A stretch of 64,000 bases of DNA. Origin: Escherichia coli (GTDB taxonomy: Bacteria > Pseudomonadota > Gammaproteobacteria > Enterobacterales > Enterobacteriaceae). The stretch lies in assembly GCF_030013595.1 (NCBI RefSeq), contig NZ_CP122772.1, one strand, 5' to 3'. A program made the position numbers and the translations under genes. Shown piece by piece: positions 27,648 through 44,489 of this stretch. Below the pieces are notes generated by a model. It was not told the origin of the DNA and did no database searches. It saw only the letters and a program-made list of their open reading frames with translations. Positions within the stretch are counted from its first letter, which is position 1; the number at the start of each line of letters is the position of its first letter.

Positions 27648-28880
27648 TCAGCCGCACACCTGCTGTCGTGCCAGTCGCTCATGCATCAGGACCAGCTCTG
27701 CCAGTCGGTAACCCCGCTTCAGCCCCGTAAAACGCATCTGACTTCCGCACAGAATGCACTTCAGCGGGTCAACCTTCAGTAACCTCTGATACATCCCTCT
27801 CCACCTGATTTGCATCGCCGTTTTTCTCACCGTCTCCGTTATGACGTACACAACTTCTTCCAGTAAGCGGCGCTTCACCGGACTCAGGAAACCGTAGTAC
27901 CTCACCATACGGAACCCCTTATCTGCTACATGCCAGGAGAACCTTTCCATGAACTCATCTCCACTCATCAACAGGTATTCTTCCCGTTTTGTACGGTGAC
28001 TGTTGTAACGCAGACCGATTTCATCCTGACCGGCATAATGCTCCAGCCGACTCATCGGCACCGGTGGCTTTTTCAGGTAAGAGCCGAAGTACACCGCCAC
28101 ATGTGTGGCGTTATCCATCACCCTGGATATGTTGACATTCCAGCCGCGGCGGTAATGCGTGTCCAGGAAGCGATTCCAGTCCCGTTTGCTGTTTCCTTCC
28201 ACTGCCAGTTCATCCGGTATTACCAGCTCCGGGTATTTCCGGGACAGTAGCCGCGTTATCCGGTAACGCCACATGCTCATCACCTTACGCGCGTAAAAAT
28301 GAAGATTTTTCCAGGTGTGGCCCGACGTCACACCACCGGCAGTTGTCGATAAATGGATATGCGGATGCCACTGCTGGTCACGCCCCCATGTGTGGATCAC
28401 CGTGAATATCCCCGGCTCCACATCTGTCTGATGGCAGATTTCCAGTATCACATCCGCTGCAATGCGGCTCATCTCTGCCAGTAACCACCGGTTGTGGAAC
28501 ACCAGGGACCAGTACTGGCAGGGAAGTGTGAACACAATATGCTGCCACGGGCAGTCGGGGACCAGGCTCAGCAGATACTGTATCCACTGTGCGCCAGCCT
28601 TCACCCCGCAGTGCGGACAGGAGCGGCTTTTACACCGGAAGCAGACCTTTTTGGTGTGGCAACAGTCCGGTGACGAACAGCACCATTGCGTGTAGCCCAT
28701 CAGCGTGGTCCCGCATGCCATGATTTTTGTCACTGACTCAGTCACCACCGGACGCACTGAACCTTCCGGCTGTTTCTCCAGCCAGTTAAGCCAGCGGTTA
28801 CCCTGCTGAAAAATATCGGCAAAACGGGGAAGCATCAGACGGGTGGGGTAACGCCATCCGGCCAGTGAACTGTGCCGCAT
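27648..28880 (-). CDS. tnpA: IS91-family rolling-circle transposase (TnpA)
   Basis: 410-aa ORF with N-terminal Cys-rich zinc-binding region; identical copy at 34244..35476. Confidence 0.85.
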   Translation of the reverse strand: MRHSSLAGWRYPTRLMLPRFADIFQQGNRWLNWLEKQPEGSVRPVVTESVTKIMACGTTLMGYTQWCCSSPDCCHTKKVCFRCKSRSCPHCGVKAGAQWIQYLLSLVPDCPWQHIVFTLPCQYWSLVFHNRWLLAEMSRIAADVILEICHQTDVEPGIFTVIHTWGRDQQWHPHIHLSTTAGGVTSGHTWKNLHFYARKVMSMWRYRITRLLSRKYPELVIPDELAVEGNSKRDWNRFLDTHYRRGWNVNISRVMDNATHVAVYFGSYLKKPPVPMSRLEHYAGQDEIGLRYNSHRTKREEYLLMSGDEFMERFSWHVADKGFRMVRYYGFLSPVKRRLLEEVVYVITETVRKTAMQIRWRGMYQRLLKVDPLKCILCGSQMRFTGLKRGYRLAELVLMHERLARQQVCG

Positions 28881-29200
28881 TCCGGGCAGTACATACCACC
28901 GGCACTGATACCGGCAAGAATGGTTGCAAACTCCCGCTCCGTACAGCGGGCTATTTCCGGATACCCTTCGTCATCGACACGAACAAACCAGAAGACCAGC
29001 TTTTTGTTTCCTGCATCCAGAAAGAACGGAATACCCAGGTCAGCGCAGCACTCAACGGCATCGTCAAAATTATCAAAGCGCAGAACTTCAGCGTCTTCTT
29101 CGTCAAAAAAATCATCCGGATGAAGTTTCACAACATAGCGGGGAAGTTTGCTTCTTTGTGGTGCGGGTTTGCGTTTACGGGGTTTAGCTGAACGGGCCAT
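28835..29200 (-). CDS. IS91 ORF121 accessory protein
   Basis: 121-aa ORF MARSAKPRKRKPAPQRSK... overlapping the tnpA start; present in every complete copy. Confidence 0.7.
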   Translation of the reverse strand: MARSAKPRKRKPAPQRSKLPRYVVKLHPDDFFDEEDAEVLRFDNFDDAVECCADLGIPFFLDAGNKKLVFWFVRVDDEGYPEIARCTEREFATILAGISAGGMYCPECGTVHWPDGVTPPV

Positions 29201-29622
29201 ATAACTACCTGAAAGACAATGACATTATCTTTTTTTATAACGGTAATTCCAGACCATGACAAGCCGCAGCCGCCAGGCTGCCTACTCGATTCTCTCGTAG
29301 AATGTGTCGTCTGGCTGAACGAAAAAACCGCCTTGGTGGGCGGTTTTTCAAAGGTTTATGGAGTTGGCGCTCGTTGAACCGAGGTAACTGGCTTGGAGGA
29401 GCGCAGCCTCCAAAATAACCTGAATGTCCAAATGGGACAGAGATTATGTAACTGAGGGATTTACTAGCGTTGTTAGAAAGGTGGCTTATCAGGAGATCTA
29501 TAAAAATGCAAAAGCCCAGTTTTTCAACTGGGCTTCGCGGTCCCTCAAGGGGAGAAAATCTGAATGGCCTCTATGGGCTACACAGCTAGTTTAACAAATC
29601 AGTAGGTTGTGTCAACAGTAAA

Positions 29623-30096
29623 CTATTTTTCGGATTCCTGCTGTGCTGGTACAAGCGCAGTTGCATTGATAGCTTTGATTACAGCTTTTTGTAGGTTTGT
29701 GACAATTTCACGTGAAAGTGTCTGCGTTATCCATCCCCTATCTACTGCCATAGGTCTGTTAAGTCGCTGATTACTTACTGTTTGAACCATGTCGCATTTA
29801 ACCCAACTAGTTGTTTGTGGGAAATATTTTGCTGGTTTAATTATCCCCTCAGGTAACTCAACGTGAAGGCCATTATTAAGTTTAGCTGGATCTTTTGTGG
29901 TTGAAATCGGAACCACAATACAGGCATTGCCATTCAGACGCCCATTCAATACAACGACGAGTCTACATTTAATCATTTCTGGGGGAATATGAGCATCGAC
30001 AGCAGTCGAAACTACATCTCCTTTTTCATCTTTCAAGTAGTTTCCGTAATTACACGTGAGAATTTGCCCCACTTTAGGGGAAAAATTTATCGGCAT
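29623..30096 (-). CDS. MazF/PemK/Kid-like toxin-fold protein (157 aa) with no obvious antitoxin
   Basis: Motif order matches Kid/PemK as I recall it: G-Q-I-L near the N-terminus, a hydrophobic VVV/VVP core (CRLVVVL, CIVVPISTT) and VKCDMVQTVS (compare VRCDQPRTID); RBS present. Confidence 0.45.
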   Translation of the reverse strand: MPINFSPKVGQILTCNYGNYLKDEKGDVVSTAVDAHIPPEMIKCRLVVVLNGRLNGNACIVVPISTTKDPAKLNNGLHVELPEGIIKPAKYFPQTTSWVKCDMVQTVSNQRLNRPMAVDRGWITQTLSREIVTNLQKAVIKAINATALVPAQQESEK

Positions 30097-30885
30097 ATCA
30101 GAGCCTTCAGATAGTCAAAGAATAGAACATAGATTACTACACAGGAAAGGCTATGCGCTACATGGCGTATATAATTCTATGATCATGAGGAAGCAGCTCC
30201 TCACCAGGACAGAAAATGCTGTATGTCCAGTCAACCGAAGAATTATAATGGCAACCATGATCATCACAGGAAGAACGAGTAACAGATGGTAACTGCGTGG
30301 GTGGATGTGGCTGATAATGCCGTAAAAATAGGTTTGGGGTCGTTGTTGACTATTTTAGGGGGGGCTGACTCTTAAGCTAACACAAAAGCACGAATTAAAA
30401 AAAGAAGCGGCAGTACAGGGATTAAAAGATAAAGAAATAAGTCAGGTTTAGCCATAAGGAAAGCAGCATTTAAACTCCAGTTTGATGTTTCTACTTTCAT
30501 TTTCTACAACAAAATACACGACACAGAACTCATTAATGCACTGAGGGATAAGGCTAGAAATTCTGTTTCCATGTTTCAGGCCATTGTGAATGAGGAAATC
30601 TGCAACGGAAAGTTTGGCACAGCAAGCCAGTAGCGCAGGACAGAATAACCTGTATGTCAGGTGATGCAGGAAATCTTATTCAAATTATCTGGTGCGGTCG
30701 CAGCTGATAAAGGCGTTGGCCAACGCGCTCGATACAAAGCCGGCGTTTAGATGATTGGTTATTTTACAGTGAGTTATGTCATTTCTGCCGAGGAGAATAT
30801 TGGTGAGTTTTTTTGAAAAATATCACAGTACGTTAAAGGGCAGGAAGCGGTTCACTTCCTGCCCTTAGTTACGTTTCCGCTGTCA

Positions 30886-30981
30886 TCAGTCGATGAACTG
30901 GCGAATCAGTTCCAGAATTGCAATCAGCGCGTTCGCAACGGCGACTACAGCCCTGAGAACGATGATTAACAGATTAATCAT
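30886..30981 (-). CDS. DinQ-like small hydrophobic type I toxin candidate (31 aa: MINLLIIVLRAVVAVANALIAILELIRQFID)
   Basis: Short ORF with GGAG RBS 6 nt upstream, single predicted TM helix, hairpin plus T-run immediately downstream on the minus strand; paralog at 43621..43704. Confidence 0.4.
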   Translation of the reverse strand: MINLLIIVLRAVVAVANALIAILELIRQFID

Positions 30982-31291
30982 CCGTTTCTCCAGTAAAACT
31001 GGAGGAAATCACCGTTGCTTACTCATACACTGCCTGTCACAACGGCTCTCTCGCATTGTTAGGTGTAGAGTGACCTCCTCCTGCCAGAGCACCGAATACA
31101 GCACCACCTGTTTATCCAGCCAGGACTTTAAAATCGTTCATACCCGCAGATACGGGAAGAGCAGGATTACAAGCCAACTACATGACTAACTGACTGATTA
31201 TACGCTACACAAAACACCCGTTACACAACTAAATGTGGTTCCTTAACCACATTTAGTTGCTTTACAGCACCATAGTGAATAAAATGTAAAC

Positions 31292-31380
31292 GTTAGGTGT
31301 AGAGTAACCTTCTCCGGTCAGAGCCACCAACTCAAGGCCGGAAAGCACAAAAAAGCCCGATTACCAGTCGGGCTTTTTTG
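31292..31380 (+). ncRNA. Conserved two-hairpin RNA module A (stem-loop plus bidirectional terminator); sRNA or 3' terminator cassette
   Basis: tccgg/ccgga stem with conserved loop (cagagccaccaactcaag) followed by terminator aaaaaagcccgattaccagtcgggctttttt; related copies at 31950..32018 and 43801..43870 with compensatory stem changes. Confidence 0.4.
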
Positions 31381-31433
31381 TACCTGTCATTCAACTGAAC
31401 TAATCTCAATAAAGATGCATCCAAGAGAGATTT

Positions 31434-31865
31434 TTATTTGGATTCGACGTTAATATCTACACAGAGGAATTTGTATTCAGGATTGTTTATTTCAAAATGT
31501 ACTTTATGCTCACCATCAGGAAATAGATTTGGATTACGTTTACCAATTGAACGAATTATTTCGTTAACTTTTTCCTTAATAAGATCGCGTGATAAATCCT
31601 CATTAAAATCTTCTTTTTTTATTCCCGGAATTATTTCCTTATAAAAATCTTTGATTATTTCCCCTCCTATATTTACTTCATAATCAAAAGATATCTGTAG
31701 AGGTCCAGACATGGTTAGTGTTTTCTTCATTGTTGTCTCTCCCGTGTTGAAATCTAATCCTTGCACTGTACAGTGCAATACATCTAAAGCCCGTACATTA
31801 TTAGGCTTTAGATGTATCAAAGTTATTTTACTAGATAATTGATTTTTATCAACCATGCCCAACAA
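31434..31865 (-). CDS. hypothetical protein (start uncertain; possibly the internal MKKTLTMSGPLQ... start)
   Basis: AT-rich ORF ending just upstream of RNA module A, which would serve as its terminator. Confidence 0.4.
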   Translation of the reverse strand: MLGMVDKNQLSSKITLIHLKPNNVRALDVLHCTVQGLDFNTGETTMKKTLTMSGPLQISFDYEVNIGGEIIKDFYKEIIPGIKKEDFNEDLSRDLIKEKVNEIIRSIGKRNPNLFPDGEHKVHFEINNPEYKFLCVDINVESK

Positions 31866-31949
31866 ACATTCAAAGTATAACCAGATAAGCTGGCTTTTGA
31901 CATAGCCAACTATCTGACTTACTATATAAACGCTGGATATTGAGATTCA

Positions 31950-32018
31950 TTCTCCGGTCAGACAATCAACTCAGAACCGGAAAGCAAAAAGCCCGATTAT
32001 CAGTCGGGCTTTTTTTTG
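31950..32018 (+). ncRNA. Conserved two-hairpin RNA module B
   Basis: tccggt...accgga stem with conserved loop core (caatcaactcag) plus terminator aaaaagcccgattatcagtcgggcttttttt. Confidence 0.4.
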
Positions 32019-32027
32019 CTTTTATCG

Positions 32028-32303
32028 TTAAGCTGCACTACTAACGCGAATATTTCCTGCATTCGATGCGGAATGTACTTCAATATCATTAAGAACACCA
32101 ATTGGATATTCTGTTTGATTAAGCATTATTTCAACATCATGTCCACATTCGCATTCATCTTCAAATTTCATCCAGATCTCCCGTTTTAAACCCGAAGAAC
32201 AATTTTCTGTCTCTTCCCAAACATCAAAATCACTTAAATTAATTTTATGTTCTTTTTTACAACTACTGCACATATACAAAACCATGCTCATTTTACTCAC
32301 CAT
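32028..32303 (-). CDS. hypothetical small Cys-rich protein (CxxC ... CxC; possible zinc ribbon)
   Basis: 91-aa ORF with MCSSCKKEHK and ECECGH motifs; terminator module B directly downstream. Confidence 0.4.
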   Translation of the reverse strand: MVSKMSMVLYMCSSCKKEHKINLSDFDVWEETENCSSGLKREIWMKFEDECECGHDVEIMLNQTEYPIGVLNDIEVHSASNAGNIRVSSAA

Positions 32304-32429
32304 ATATTTTTATCAAAAAAATTAATAATTATGGCACTATCTGAAGACTGACAAACCACCCCTGGTTAATCGGATGCTTCAGACATGCCATTGGATATTA
32401 TATGGAGAACAAGGGATAATCAACTATCG

Positions 32430-33835
32430 CTACTTTTTGGAGGTAAATTCAAACCCTAATTTTCCTGTTGCTTTATCAAGCAATTTAACTTTAGCCGAAA
32501 ATTCTTTATTCGTCCTGGAACTAACAAACCCTTTTAACTCTCCTGTAATACCTTTTGTTAGCAAGGTTTCTACTTGCTTGTCAGAAAGCTCCTTGCCAGA
32601 GAAGTTCTTCCAGATTTTAAATTCACATCCTGTACAGAAATAACCTTTTGGCCTGATAGCAATCTGCTTACCACAGGAAGGGCAGGGAGCATTCAGGCGT
32701 TGAGATTGGCCTGCTGGCGCTGCTGCTTCAATCTTCATCTCGCCCAGGTCAACATCTATAATCATGCCGCTCAGTTCACTGTAAAGCTCATTAATAAACT
32801 CTTCAACCGTCAGATCACCATTTTCAATAGCAGCCTGTTTTTCAGCCCATAATGCTGTCATATCTGGATTAACAGCTATATCCGGCAGAGCATCAATAAG
32901 CGCATATCCGGTATCTGTCGGAATGAGTTTTCCTTTTTCCAGCGTGATATAATTTCTCTTCTTCAACGTTTCCAGAATCGCTGCACGGGTAGCTGGTGTA
33001 CCAATGCCGCCATGTTCATCTTTTTTGTCTTTATCTTTATCCTTCAACAATTTTTTAATCGTTGGGTCAGTGACAAAATCCGCGACACGAACAAGCGCAG
33101 CAAGCAAGGAGGCTTCAGTAAATAATGGCGGCGGTGTCGTTTTTTTCTCATTAACTACAACTTCTTTTGTCGTCAGTGTTTCTCCTGTGCGAACTTTACA
33201 GAGTAGTTCAAAAGCGGAATCATCGTTATCTTCTGATTCACCTTCGTCTGTGGTTTCCGCACCAAGAAATGCCTCAAATCCGCTGTCAGTTGTTTTTCTG
33301 GCACGAGCATAGAACGACTCATCACCACACTGAATGGCAACCGATACTTCCTGGTATGCTTTTTCAGGCATGAACTGAACAAGATAGTGTTGTGCGATCG
33401 CAAGGTAAACATTGCGCTCGTCGGTGCTGAGTGCGTTAACATCAGGCACACTGGCAGTCGGGATTATCGCAGTATGCGCAGTCACCTTTGCACTGTTAAA
33501 CGCCTTGCTTTTACGTGCGGAATCAATATCCAGCGACTGAGGAAATACTGATTTCAGGGCATCGATAACCTGCGGCGCTTCGCTGAATTGTTCATCAGAA
33601 AGATATGAGCAATCAGAGCGGTTATAAGTAATCGCTTTATATTTTTCACGTAATTGTTGCGTAATATCCAGCGTTTTTTGTGCCGTCATTTTGAACTTTT
33701 TGTTCATGTATTGCTGGAGTCTGACCAGGTTAAACGGCAACGGCGCAGCCGTTTTTTTATCATCAGTTGCTGCCGCTTCAACGGTAGCCGGTTTTCCTGC
33801 AAGGGATGCAGCCGTTCCGTCTGCCCACGCTTTAT
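32430..33835 (-). pseudogene. topB: DNA topoisomerase III (TopB-like) gene truncated at its 5' end by IS91 copy 2
   Basis: Translation has type IA topoisomerase features (GGIGTPATRAAILETLKKRNYI; C-terminal zinc ribbon CPSCGK...CTGC) but the first ~20 codons of the ORF derive from the IS91 end sequence; the N-terminal part of the enzyme is missing. Confidence 0.7.
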
Positions 33836-33923
33836 CGAGTAGGCAGCCTGGCGGCTGCGGCTTGTCATGGTCTGGAATTACCGTTATAAAAAAAGATAAT
33901 GTCATTGTCTTTCAGGTAGTTAT

Positions 33924-34289
33924 ATGGCCCGTTCAGCTAAACCCCGTAAACGCAAACCCGCACCACAAAGAAGCAAACTTCCCCGCTATGTTGTGAAACT
34001 TCATCCGGATGATTTTTTTGACGAAGAAGACGCTGAAGTTCTGCGCTTTGATAATTTTGACGATGCCGTTGAGTGCTGCGCTGACCTGGGTATTCCGTTC
34101 TTTCTGGATGCAGGAAACAAAAAGCTGGTCTTCTGGTTTGTTCGTGTCGATGACGAAGGGTATCCGGAAATAGCCCGCTGTACGGAGCGGGAGTTTGCAA
34201 CCATTCTTGCCGGTATCAGTGCCGGTGGTATGTACTGCCCGGAATGCGGCACAGTTCACTGGCCGGATGGCGTTACCCCACCCGTCTGA
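33924..34289 (+). CDS. IS91 ORF121 accessory protein
   Basis: Identical to the ORF at 28835..29200. Confidence 0.7.
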   Translation: MARSAKPRKRKPAPQRSKLPRYVVKLHPDDFFDEEDAEVLRFDNFDDAVECCADLGIPFFLDAGNKKLVFWFVRVDDEGYPEIARCTEREFATILAGISAGGMYCPECGTVHWPDGVTPPV

Positions 34290-35476
34290 TGCTTCCCCGT
34301 TTTGCCGATATTTTTCAGCAGGGTAACCGCTGGCTTAACTGGCTGGAGAAACAGCCGGAAGGTTCAGTGCGTCCGGTGGTGACTGAGTCAGTGACAAAAA
34401 TCATGGCATGCGGGACCACGCTGATGGGCTACACGCAATGGTGCTGTTCGTCACCGGACTGTTGCCACACCAAAAAGGTCTGCTTCCGGTGTAAAAGCCG
34501 CTCCTGTCCGCACTGCGGGGTGAAGGCTGGCGCACAGTGGATACAGTATCTGCTGAGCCTGGTCCCCGACTGCCCGTGGCAGCATATTGTGTTCACACTT
34601 CCCTGCCAGTACTGGTCCCTGGTGTTCCACAACCGGTGGTTACTGGCAGAGATGAGCCGCATTGCAGCGGATGTGATACTGGAAATCTGCCATCAGACAG
34701 ATGTGGAGCCGGGGATATTCACGGTGATCCACACATGGGGGCGTGACCAGCAGTGGCATCCGCATATCCATTTATCGACAACTGCCGGTGGTGTGACGTC
34801 GGGCCACACCTGGAAAAATCTTCATTTTTACGCGCGTAAGGTGATGAGCATGTGGCGTTACCGGATAACGCGGCTACTGTCCCGGAAATACCCGGAGCTG
34901 GTAATACCGGATGAACTGGCAGTGGAAGGAAACAGCAAACGGGACTGGAATCGCTTCCTGGACACGCATTACCGCCGCGGCTGGAATGTCAACATATCCA
35001 GGGTGATGGATAACGCCACACATGTGGCGGTGTACTTCGGCTCTTACCTGAAAAAGCCACCGGTGCCGATGAGTCGGCTGGAGCATTATGCCGGTCAGGA
35101 TGAAATCGGTCTGCGTTACAACAGTCACCGTACAAAACGGGAAGAATACCTGTTGATGAGTGGAGATGAGTTCATGGAAAGGTTCTCCTGGCATGTAGCA
35201 GATAAGGGGTTCCGTATGGTGAGGTACTACGGTTTCCTGAGTCCGGTGAAGCGCCGCTTACTGGAAGAAGTTGTGTACGTCATAACGGAGACGGTGAGAA
35301 AAACGGCGATGCAAATCAGGTGGAGAGGGATGTATCAGAGGTTACTGAAGGTTGACCCGCTGAAGTGCATTCTGTGCGGAAGTCAGATGCGTTTTACGGG
35401 GCTGAAGCGGGGTTACCGACTGGCAGAGCTGGTCCTGATGCATGAGCGACTGGCACGACAGCAGGTGTGCGGCTGA
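34244..35476 (+). CDS. tnpA: IS91-family rolling-circle transposase (TnpA)
   Basis: Identical 410-aa translation to copy 1. Confidence 0.85.
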   Translation: MRHSSLAGWRYPTRLMLPRFADIFQQGNRWLNWLEKQPEGSVRPVVTESVTKIMACGTTLMGYTQWCCSSPDCCHTKKVCFRCKSRSCPHCGVKAGAQWIQYLLSLVPDCPWQHIVFTLPCQYWSLVFHNRWLLAEMSRIAADVILEICHQTDVEPGIFTVIHTWGRDQQWHPHIHLSTTAGGVTSGHTWKNLHFYARKVMSMWRYRITRLLSRKYPELVIPDELAVEGNSKRDWNRFLDTHYRRGWNVNISRVMDNATHVAVYFGSYLKKPPVPMSRLEHYAGQDEIGLRYNSHRTKREEYLLMSGDEFMERFSWHVADKGFRMVRYYGFLSPVKRRLLEEVVYVITETVRKTAMQIRWRGMYQRLLKVDPLKCILCGSQMRFTGLKRGYRLAELVLMHERLARQQVCG

Positions 35477-43620: not shown

Positions 43621-43704
43621 TCAGCCCATCAACTGGAGAAGGTAGCGAATCAGTTCAAGAAGTGAGATTAGTGCCCCCAGAACGATGATTGCTTTATCAA
43701 TCAT
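43621..43704 (-). CDS. DinQ-like small type I toxin candidate (27 aa: MIDKAIIVLGALISLLELIRYLLQLMG)
   Basis: Closely resembles my recollection of E. coli DinQ; hairpin plus T-run downstream on the minus strand; 5' leader region shared with the paralog at 30886..30981. Confidence 0.5.
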   Translation of the reverse strand: MIDKAIIVLGALISLLELIRYLLQLMG

Positions 43705-43800
43705 CCGTTTACTCCATTATATGGAGCAGACTCCCGATACTTACTCTTACACTGCCTGTCATATCGGTTGTTCTTCGGTGTTGGTTGAAGACAGTTCCAC

Positions 43801-43870
43801 TCCAGCCAGAGCCACCAACTCAGGGCTGGAAAACACAAAAAAGCCCGATTACCCGTCGGTTTTTTTTTGT
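43801..43870 (+). ncRNA. Conserved two-hairpin RNA module C
   Basis: ccagcc...ggctgg stem with the same loop core as module A (cagagccaccaactcag) and a degenerate terminator. Confidence 0.35.
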
Positions 43871-44489
43871 GCCTGTCGTTTGGCTGTACTTCCGTTTTTT
43901 CCCCTTCATTTGAGGGATTTTTCTTTCATTTTTTGTTGCAGTCAATACCGCTGATCGCGTTGGCCAACAGAACGATGCCGTTACCGGCATTATCATGAAT
44001 CCCATTTTTTCAGTAAGTTGCAGCATACAAAGTAATTAAAAAAACGTCATTTTTTGTTGATGGATGCAGTAGCGGTGGTGTGCTACGTGAAATCTGGGAA
44101 ATGCTGGCGGGTAAGTGACTCAATTTTTAATCTCCGCACCTGTTTTTTTGGACGTGCCAGCAATTATGACCTGAAGCAGAGGTGCGTCCGACAACAAAAA
44201 TTCCGATCACCAGAAAAAATTTTGGACATTTTTTCCGATAATGCATTTTTGTCCAGGGGGATATGAACTACAGGGCAGGGCGAAAAGGAAGCGGTTATCT
44301 TGATCGATAGGAATTTAAATCCCAAAAAGATTAAAAAAACACCCAAAAACGGATGTTTATTCGACACTGCCTGCGTGCCATGAGTGCACCGCCATCAATT
44401 AAATGGATCTTATCGAGTGATACTGTATATCACTGATGGTTTTTTACTCCATTCCCCTGAAAATGGACGCAACTTCCCCGATGCGGCTC

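Follow-up and report, generated by a model that had tools for sequence, protein, structure and literature searches.

AgrB-family RNA modules beside dqlB and dinQ on an Escherichia coli plasmid: a predicted antitoxin gene, a drifted paralogue and a deletion remnant

The 64,000-nucleotide (nt) stretch of Escherichia coli DNA analysed here (contig NZ_CP122772.1 of assembly GCF_030013595.1; hereafter the window) carries three plus-strand copies of a two-hairpin RNA module, located at 31293-31380 (module 1), 31933-32017 (module 2) and 43781-43868 (module 3). When the window was scanned at the Rfam gathering threshold, all three copies matched family RF02891 (AgrB) over the full model length (1-84), with scores of 64.0, 56.2 and 70.1 bits, respectively, against a gathering score of 40 bits. 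A preliminary description had recognised the copies at the right sites and on the right strand, although its 5' ends (31292, 31950 and 43801) require correction, as the Rfam alignment starts modules 2 and 3 17-20 nt further to the left. The modules lie beside two toxin genes, both located on the minus strand. In locus A, which contains modules 1 and 2, dqlB (30886..30981) encodes a 31-amino-acid (aa) DinQ-like type I toxin (MINLLIIVLRAVVAVANALIAILELIRQFID) that matches NCBIfam NF041473 with 72.4 bits (cut-off 35) and is named dqlB in identical RefSeq plasmids. In locus B, which contains module 3, the plasmid dinQ gene (43621..43704) encodes a 27-aa type I toxin (MIDKAIIVLGALISLLELIRYLLQLMG) that matches NF041472 with 55.5 bits (cut-off 30) and is named dinQ in RefSeq. 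Beyond these two, no other DinQ-like open reading frame (ORF) is found in the window. The three modules are, with high probability, genes or the remains of genes for AgrB-family antisense small RNAs (sRNAs) of DinQ/DqlB type I toxin-antitoxin (TA) plasmid addiction systems, module 1 being the working gene, module 2 a paralogue and module 3 a deletion remnant. The suggestion that the modules might be antitoxin RNAs for the DinQ-like ORFs is therefore correct for the family, because all three are Rfam AgrB matches beside toxins confirmed by NCBIfam, but it applies unevenly to the copies, holding at the sequence level for module 1 but not for modules 2 and 3.

Module 1 begins 312 nt upstream of the dqlB ATG, and the two genes diverge. 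The 5' untranslated region (UTR) of dqlB contains, at 31058..31090 on the minus strand, a direct repeat of the module 1 5' end (29/33 identity between 31058-31090 and 31292-31324 by self-blast), and the dqlB mRNA is therefore complementary to the sRNA. The first 32 nt of module 1 repeat 31059-31090 at 28 of 32 positions, with the site placed 78 nt from the dqlB ATG. Duplex predictions were limited to the 5' 40 nt of each sRNA, since unrestricted RNAduplex runs with the whole sRNA gave inflated global duplexes. Under these settings the module 1 tail and the dqlB mRNA form a duplex of -57.4 kcal/mol, compared with -27.5 +/- 3.0 kcal/mol for shuffled sequences (z = -10), a value reached by none of 300 shuffles. 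The chromosomal controls gave z = -13.8 for agrB and z = -7.2 for agrA in the same test, such that the strength of the module 1-dqlB duplex is comparable to that of chromosomal agrB with dinQ. The check on complementarity to the DinQ-like mRNAs that had been proposed earlier thus succeeds for module 1 and fails for module 2; among the three modules, only module 1 has an sRNA 5' end complementary to a toxin 5' UTR over about 31-35 nt. The same geometry, with an RF02891 gene located 308-325 nt from the toxin ATG in divergent orientation, is displayed by five other plasmid loci (two IncX4, one IncX3 and two IncX1) and by pEC4115, as well as by the chromosomal dinQ/agrAB locus. In every locus compared the sRNA tail matches the UTR repeat of its own locus, the repeat sequence varying between lineages and the target always being positioned 76-80 nt from the ATG. 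This locus-by-locus co-variation of tail and target constitutes the strongest sequence evidence of cognate pairing.

A putative module 1 promoter, TTGCTT-17-TAAAAT (31257..31285, plus strand), was read from the sequence 7 nt before the sRNA start, in the register also occupied by the promoters of module 2, of chromosomal agrA/agrB and of the sRNA on plasmid p13P484A-4 (locus L131). Similarly, a putative dqlB promoter is suggested by a -10 hexamer TATAAT (31197..31202, minus strand), a hexamer shared by L131, the dinQ-type parent of locus B, and part of the segment that locus B has lost; the consensus promoter scan missed this promoter because of its weak -35. A scan for LexA boxes in locus A returned only a poor 12/20 box located inside the UTR, compared with 15/20 for the chromosomal control CTGGATAATCATACAG, and returned none in locus B. 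The dqlB promoter, devoid of a LexA box, fits a constitutive addiction module, and dqlB is presumably not under SOS control. In the proposed mechanism, module 1 would be transcribed from its own constitutive promoter, divergently from dqlB, and its single-stranded tail of ~32 nt would pair with the same-sequence repeat in the dqlB 5' UTR, 78 nt upstream of the start codon, the pairing blocking processing or translation of a stable toxin mRNA. Upon plasmid loss, the toxin mRNA would outlast the sRNA and the cell would be killed by DqlB. The sequence itself shows family membership, architecture, complementarity, covariation and the deletion, and from it we infer transcription, RNA stabilities and antitoxin activity, together with the silence of locus B discussed below. 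Module 1 looks like a functional, canonical antitoxin gene of dqlB, displaying every feature by which such a gene can be recognised at the sequence level.

Duplex predictions for both plasmid and chromosomal pairs point to a further site in the dqlB mRNA, where a GGUGG-containing patch (31102..31110, minus strand) is complementary to the CCACC loop of the sRNA first hairpin. The sequence GCACCACC is kept at this position in all loci compared, making the patch a possible second sRNA contact. GGUGGUGC, complementary to the CCACC loop, is kept in all toxin UTRs, where in the mRNA it precedes the main target by about 12-15 nt (window 31102-31110 on the minus-strand mRNA; 1022-1032 of the chromosomal locus L003; about 1493-1500 of locus L007). 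In IncX3/X1 loci the sRNA loop reads UUACCAG and the UTR has gained an adjacent ACCAGC; the independent changes are very few, but they hint at a second contact, made between loop and mRNA. An inverted repeat of 34 nt (88% complementary) occupies 31226-31259 between the putative promoters of dqlB and module 1 and overlaps the -35 of the latter; this repeat is absent from L131 and from the locus of E. coli plasmid p120899_146 (L010).

The minimum-free-energy fold of all three modules displays the architecture of the AgrB family, consisting of an unpaired 5' tail followed by two hairpins, the first bulged and the second a Rho-independent terminator. Single-sequence folding gave z = -6.2 for module 1 (-36.9 kcal/mol), -4.2 for module 2 and -2.2 for module 3. 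The terminator stem is weakened in the window copy of module 3 while that of module 2 is intact. Shuffles predict no occurrence of the terminator pattern AAAAGCCCGATTANCNGTCGG, which the window has exactly three times. The loop core initially quoted as common to the three copies, caNNcaactcag, is exact in module 2 only, modules 1 and 3 reading CCACCAACTCA, and by itself the short motif is found 23 times in the window where 18.6 would be expected, which is no enrichment. In contrast, the compensatory stem changes hold when the alignment is extended to 14 copies from the window, the E. coli chromosome and IncX1/X3/X4 and IncF plasmids. Stem 1 of the window copies carries G-C, G-C and A-U as its fourth pair and U-G, U-A and C-G as its sixth. 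In the 14-copy alignment 94.6% of the cells form pairs, compared with 29-60% when the 3' partners are slid, and four pairs have changed on both sides. The covariation score of 0.172 exceeds that of shuffled alignments (0.087 +/- 0.017) and was reached by none of 500 shuffles. A covariance model built from 14 family members, as had been proposed as a check, matches just these three sites in the 64-kb window. Further Enterobacterales copies recovered by model R1 were left out of the covariation alignment. A species-wide 16-mer scan for family copies was rejected, as it returned mostly chance matches, and the genuine Enterobacterales copies came from model R1.

Module 2 is separated from dqlB by 952 nt, with an ORF and module 1 in between. 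Its predicted promoter, TTGACA-17-TACTAT (31897..31925, plus strand; 10/12 matches in the promoter scan), is the best of the three modules. In the pEC4115 copy, which is 89% identical, both hexamers are unchanged whereas the spacer carries two changes and the flanks differ. As promoter and terminator are both conserved, transcription of module 2 is probable. Its 5' tail, however, has drifted and matches the dqlB target at only 22 of 38 positions. The predicted duplexes of module 2 with the dqlB mRNA (z = +0.4) and with the dinQ mRNA (z = -1.0) are indistinguishable from shuffles, the dinQ mRNA interval behind the latter value ending at 43780 and thus not containing the target repeat. A second repeat of the module 2 tail was found neither in the window nor as a second site on PLSDB plasmids, where 86 records contain the tail at 88 places, about one per plasmid. 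In addition, CCACC has been lost from the module 2 loop, and the inner stem is weakened. On the simplest reading, module 2 is probably a duplicated, agrA-like paralogue that is transcribed but is not an antitoxin of dqlB, its tail no longer matching the toxin mRNA, as would also be the case for E. coli agrA.

Further AgrB-family genes occur outside the window. Position 1510-1595 of L010, on the IncFIA/FIC plasmid p120899_146, holds an orphan AgrB-family gene with the promoter and tail of module 1 and the 3' flank of module 2, and no DqlB ORF is found anywhere in this 3.1-kb locus, which looks like a recombinant between modules 1 and 2 from which the toxin and the ORF in between were lost. Citrobacter werkmanii and C. 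amalonaticus carry tandem arrays of two to three AgrB-family genes spaced ~116 nt apart (L012 4744-5797, L013 675-992 and L056 7078-7836). Model R1 also recovered an AgrB-family match of 88.7 bits in Haemophilus sputorum CCUG 13788 (L017 419-506), on a 1319-bp Pasteurellaceae contig, which could reflect plasmid carry-over, contamination or a wider host range.

In locus B, module 3 begins 77 nt from the dinQ ATG, at the position where the UTR target repeat sits in every other locus, and the promoter scan found no plus-strand promoter upstream of it. The origin of this layout is revealed by an unfused parent present on p13P484A-4 (L131) and pFORC51 (L132). L131 displays, in order, dinQ, the target repeat at 980-1013, 153 bp of promoter region with TTGCAT-17-TATTAT in it, and the sRNA at 1169-1256. 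The window segment 43560-43812 corresponds to L131 761-1013 at 99.6% identity and the segment 43779-43960 to L131 1167-1347 at 94.5%. As the two matches overlap on a 34-nt repeat, locus B is L131 minus 187 bp, lost through recombination between direct repeats. The junction is the single surviving repeat at 43779..43812, where the UTR target is fused to the sRNA 5' end, and both the toxin and the sRNA promoters of the parent lie within the missing 187 bp. Module 3 is, by this comparison, a deletion scar carrying a promoterless AgrB-family sRNA body fused to the dinQ 5' UTR, and not an independent gene. Tail-target complementarity is a moot question for module 3, its 5' part being the target repeat itself. 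Similarly, the strong duplex predicted between module 1 and locus B when the interval includes the repeat (z = -8.3) only reflects that a homologous sRNA has its antisense in the minus strand of module 3. The parental dinQ-type locus recombined at its two 34-nt direct repeats and lost both promoters with the excised segment, which would make locus B a disarmed relic.

In the window the four diagnostic bases of the surviving repeat are all target-type, which places the crossover in the last 6 nt. In contrast, in Salmonella pSTY1 (L005, repeat 1440-1475) all four are sRNA-type, which places it in the first 12 nt. The repeat deletion has, on the evidence of these junctions, arisen at least twice independently. 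In a rank-spread sample of 29 matching plasmid dinQ loci about 20 are fused and 9 unfused, a rough figure by which most of the plasmid dinQ lineage appears to carry the deletion. The alternative that the fused layout is an ancestral cis-antisense form was rejected on two grounds: identity to the unfused parent reaches 99.6% on one side of the junction and 94.5% on the other, and the fusions differ in where they crossed over. The 34-nt specificity repeat can be located as a deletion hotspot at window 43779-43812, L131 980-1013 and 1167-1200, and L005 1440-1475.

The closest known system is chromosomal dinQ/agrAB of E. coli (Weel-Sneve et al. 2013, PMC3567139), in which AgrB is the antisense antitoxin of the type I toxin DinQ, only agrB counters toxicity and agrA is regarded as a partly degenerated duplicate. 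Chromosomal dinQ (L003) is a minus-strand gene with a 34-nt repeat in its 5' UTR, 76 nt from the ATG, and with two RF02891 genes upstream on the opposite strand. The distal sRNA matches the repeat at 34 of 38 positions and the proximal at 27 of 38, which identifies them as agrB and agrA, respectively, given the published complementarities of 30/31 for agrB and 25/31 for agrA (PMC3567139). The plasmid loci share with it a two-hairpin sRNA divergent from the toxin, a 5' tail of ~31 nt complementary to a toxin UTR repeat 76-78 nt from the ATG, a duplicated sRNA gene with one good and one drifted copy, and a toxin that is a single-helix membrane peptide of 27-31 aa. In contrast, the terminator of the plasmid copies reads GCCCGATTA.C.GTCGGGC and they score 56-70 bits against RF02891, compared with 106-108 bits for the chromosomal genes. 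The plasmid locus also differs in that a 140-aa ORF sits between its two sRNA genes, in that the dqlB promoter has no LexA box of the kind that places chromosomal dinQ in the SOS regulon, and in that module 2 is more diverged from the target (22/38) than agrA (27/38).

The dql genes were named by Kristiansen et al. in 2016, who found them on plasmids (PMC5066626). In 2025, dqlB-agrB of pOXA-48 (IncL; PMC12365149) and of pOXA-484 (IncX3; PMC12317039) were reported to be plasmid-stabilising addiction modules, and toxicity, neutralisation by the agrB sRNA and killing on plasmid loss are established for these homologous loci. Homologues occur in 3310 of 15775 plasmids, are often unannotated, and in IncF plasmids are reportedly uncommon and horizontally acquired (4.2%; PMC12365149, PMC12317039). 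Locus A resembles the pOXA-48 and pOXA-484 loci in its NF041473 DqlB toxin, in being plasmid-borne, in an agrB-like sRNA complementary to the 5' UTR over ~35 nt, and in that the toxin alone, if anything, is annotated; its geometry is shared by the IncX3 and IncX4 loci. However, pOXA-48 and pOXA-484 have one sRNA per locus, the IncX3 study having found no agrA, whereas in locus A, as in pEC4115, a further sRNA gene is found at a distance of 640 nt, and its replicon is IncF-like rather than IncL or IncX3. The modules are thus a correct rediscovery of a known system, whose plasmid form, dqlB-agrB, was named in 2016 and validated as an addiction system in 2025. Minor additions to the published picture are that this locus type has a second, drifted sRNA gene and that the plasmid dinQ locus is recurrently disarmed by a repeat-mediated deletion.

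In tisB/istR-1, zorO/orzO and shoB/ohsC a divergent antitoxin gene likewise shares a short repeat with the toxin 5' UTR and is not a true overlapping antisense. The hok/sok system of plasmid R1 is also plasmid-borne and combines a small membrane toxin with an unstable antisense RNA and post-segregational killing. In hok/sok, however, Sok overlaps the hok/mok leader in cis, and its RNA and protein families are unrelated to those of the modules; similarly, tisB/istR-1, zorO/orzO and shoB/ohsC are not known to have any sequence or Rfam relationship to them. A comparison with tisB/istR-1-like systems is drawn in PMC3567139.

Several observations weigh against the assignment of the three modules as working gene, paralogue and remnant. 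The module 1 -35 hexamer, TTGCTT, is weak and falls under the -35 threshold of the consensus scan, and the promoters and RNA ends on this plasmid are read from sequence and homology. An intact, conserved promoter would not be expected of a purely decaying copy, which leaves room for another function of module 2. In locus B a minus-strand promoter-like site, TTGACT-17-AAAAAT (43945..43917, 9/12 matches), could drive read-through transcription of dinQ, whose ORF is still intact, so that locus B is only probably silent. That module 2 is a second functional antitoxin, acting on dqlB via the shared hairpin or serving as an anti-addiction RNA against the dql toxin of other replicons, is unlikely. 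The hexamers kept in pEC4115 while the flanks diverge, the intact terminator, the tandem multi-copy sRNA arrays common in the AgrB family and the toxin-less orphan sRNA of L010 are in its favour, but module 2 shows no significant complementarity to either toxin mRNA and no repeat of its tail in the window or in PLSDB, the CCACC loop is lost and the inner stem weakened, and the analogous copy, E. coli agrA, does not counteract toxicity (PMC3567139). Module 3 acting as a cis-antisense sRNA, or belonging to a rearranged but functional dinQ locus with overlapping toxin and antitoxin, is distinctly improbable. The high frequency of the fused form among the sampled dinQ loci, the intact ORF and the weak minus-strand site would agree with such a locus, whereas the loss of both parental promoters with the 187 bp, the lack of a plus-strand promoter upstream of the module and the degraded terminator stem speak against it, and the differing crossovers are those expected of repeated accidents between repeats and not of one selected design.

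The preliminary description had also considered the modules as terminator cassettes shared by small minus-strand genes. Two such genes converge on locus A, namely a hypothetical 140-aa ORF (31434..31856, minus strand; WP_001398192.1), whose transcript would end at the module 1 terminator, and a hypothetical 87-aa ORF (32028..32291, minus strand; WP_000063165.1); neither has an NCBIfam, PHROG or PADLOC match. The terminator hairpins of modules 1 and 2 lie directly downstream of the stops of these ORFs, at 57 and 14 nt, respectively. With A-runs and U-runs on both sides, they fold equally well on the minus strand, where the regions with their U-run reach -27.5 and -19.9 kcal/mol. The terminators of modules 1 and 2 are bidirectional and probably also end the two convergent transcripts, and the cassette proposal survives as a plausible added role of these two modules. 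That the modules are bidirectional terminators only, from which no sRNA is made, is very unlikely, as this would leave unexplained the first hairpin, the promoters fixed 7 nt before the Rfam start, and the tail-UTR match with its co-variation across loci. Furthermore, no convergent ORF is found at that distance for module 3 and the IncX3/X4 copies, and homologous RNAs have been detected experimentally in E. coli (PMC3567139). An origin as pieces of a generic repetitive or mobile element unrelated to toxins, of the repetitive extragenic palindrome (REP) or miniature inverted-repeat transposable element (MITE) kind, can practically be dismissed. The modules are multi-copy, hairpin-rich and near IS91 copies, but they match a curated sRNA family, have neither terminal inverted repeats nor target-site duplications, and occur only beside DinQ/DqlB toxin genes or their remnants, with fixed geometry, across chromosomes and IncX, IncF and IncN plasmids. 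The suggestion of independent sRNAs fits module 1; module 2 has a promoter and a terminator but no complementarity to either toxin mRNA, and module 3, as a deletion junction, does not qualify.

The window is 100% identical to E. coli plasmids from pigs and cattle, such as pU90-5. The locus A segment (window about 27700-35400, L001 of pU90-5) is flanked by two IS91-family transposase genes and also contains a PemK/MazF toxin gene and an N-terminally truncated type IA topoisomerase gene (window 32430-33905). The gene order dqlB, sRNA, small ORFs and topoisomerase is that of IncX plasmids (L006 and L009), and the segment has the look of a piece of IncX backbone that an IncF-like plasmid has taken up. 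Other Rfam matches above the gathering score, all on the minus strand, are a CopA-like RNA of IncFII-type replication control (24693-24783, 89.2 bits), a ColE1-type RNAI (29319-29418, 72.9 bits) and AS-pc02 (22593-22759, 58.2 bits), which suggest a mosaic, multi-replicon plasmid.

The finding matters mainly for annotation. The RefSeq and PLSDB records inspected name the toxin coding sequences, dqlB and dinQ, and annotate no AgrB-family RNA, although all copies pass the Rfam gathering score. With toxin peptides alone, such a record reads as two unopposed toxins, where the plasmid has one apparently intact DqlB-AgrB module and one disarmed DinQ module. Knowledge of which TA loci are live bears on the prediction of plasmid stability and on curing strategies, agrB supplied in trans having been found to rescue cells from killing after destruction of pOXA-48 (PMC12365149). 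The recurrent repeat-mediated deletion is a small, testable point on the decay of divergent type I TA loci. More tentatively, and with a low chance of being right, the repeat that confers antisense specificity may also make divergent type I TA modules self-destruct, in one step that removes both promoters and that has occurred at least twice; this could be a general, possibly selected, way for plasmids or hosts to disarm addiction modules. At the same level of probability, module 2 could be an expressed orphan sRNA with a role other than dqlB control, either as an anti-addiction RNA against toxins that competing plasmids encode or in regulating a target of an unrelated kind.

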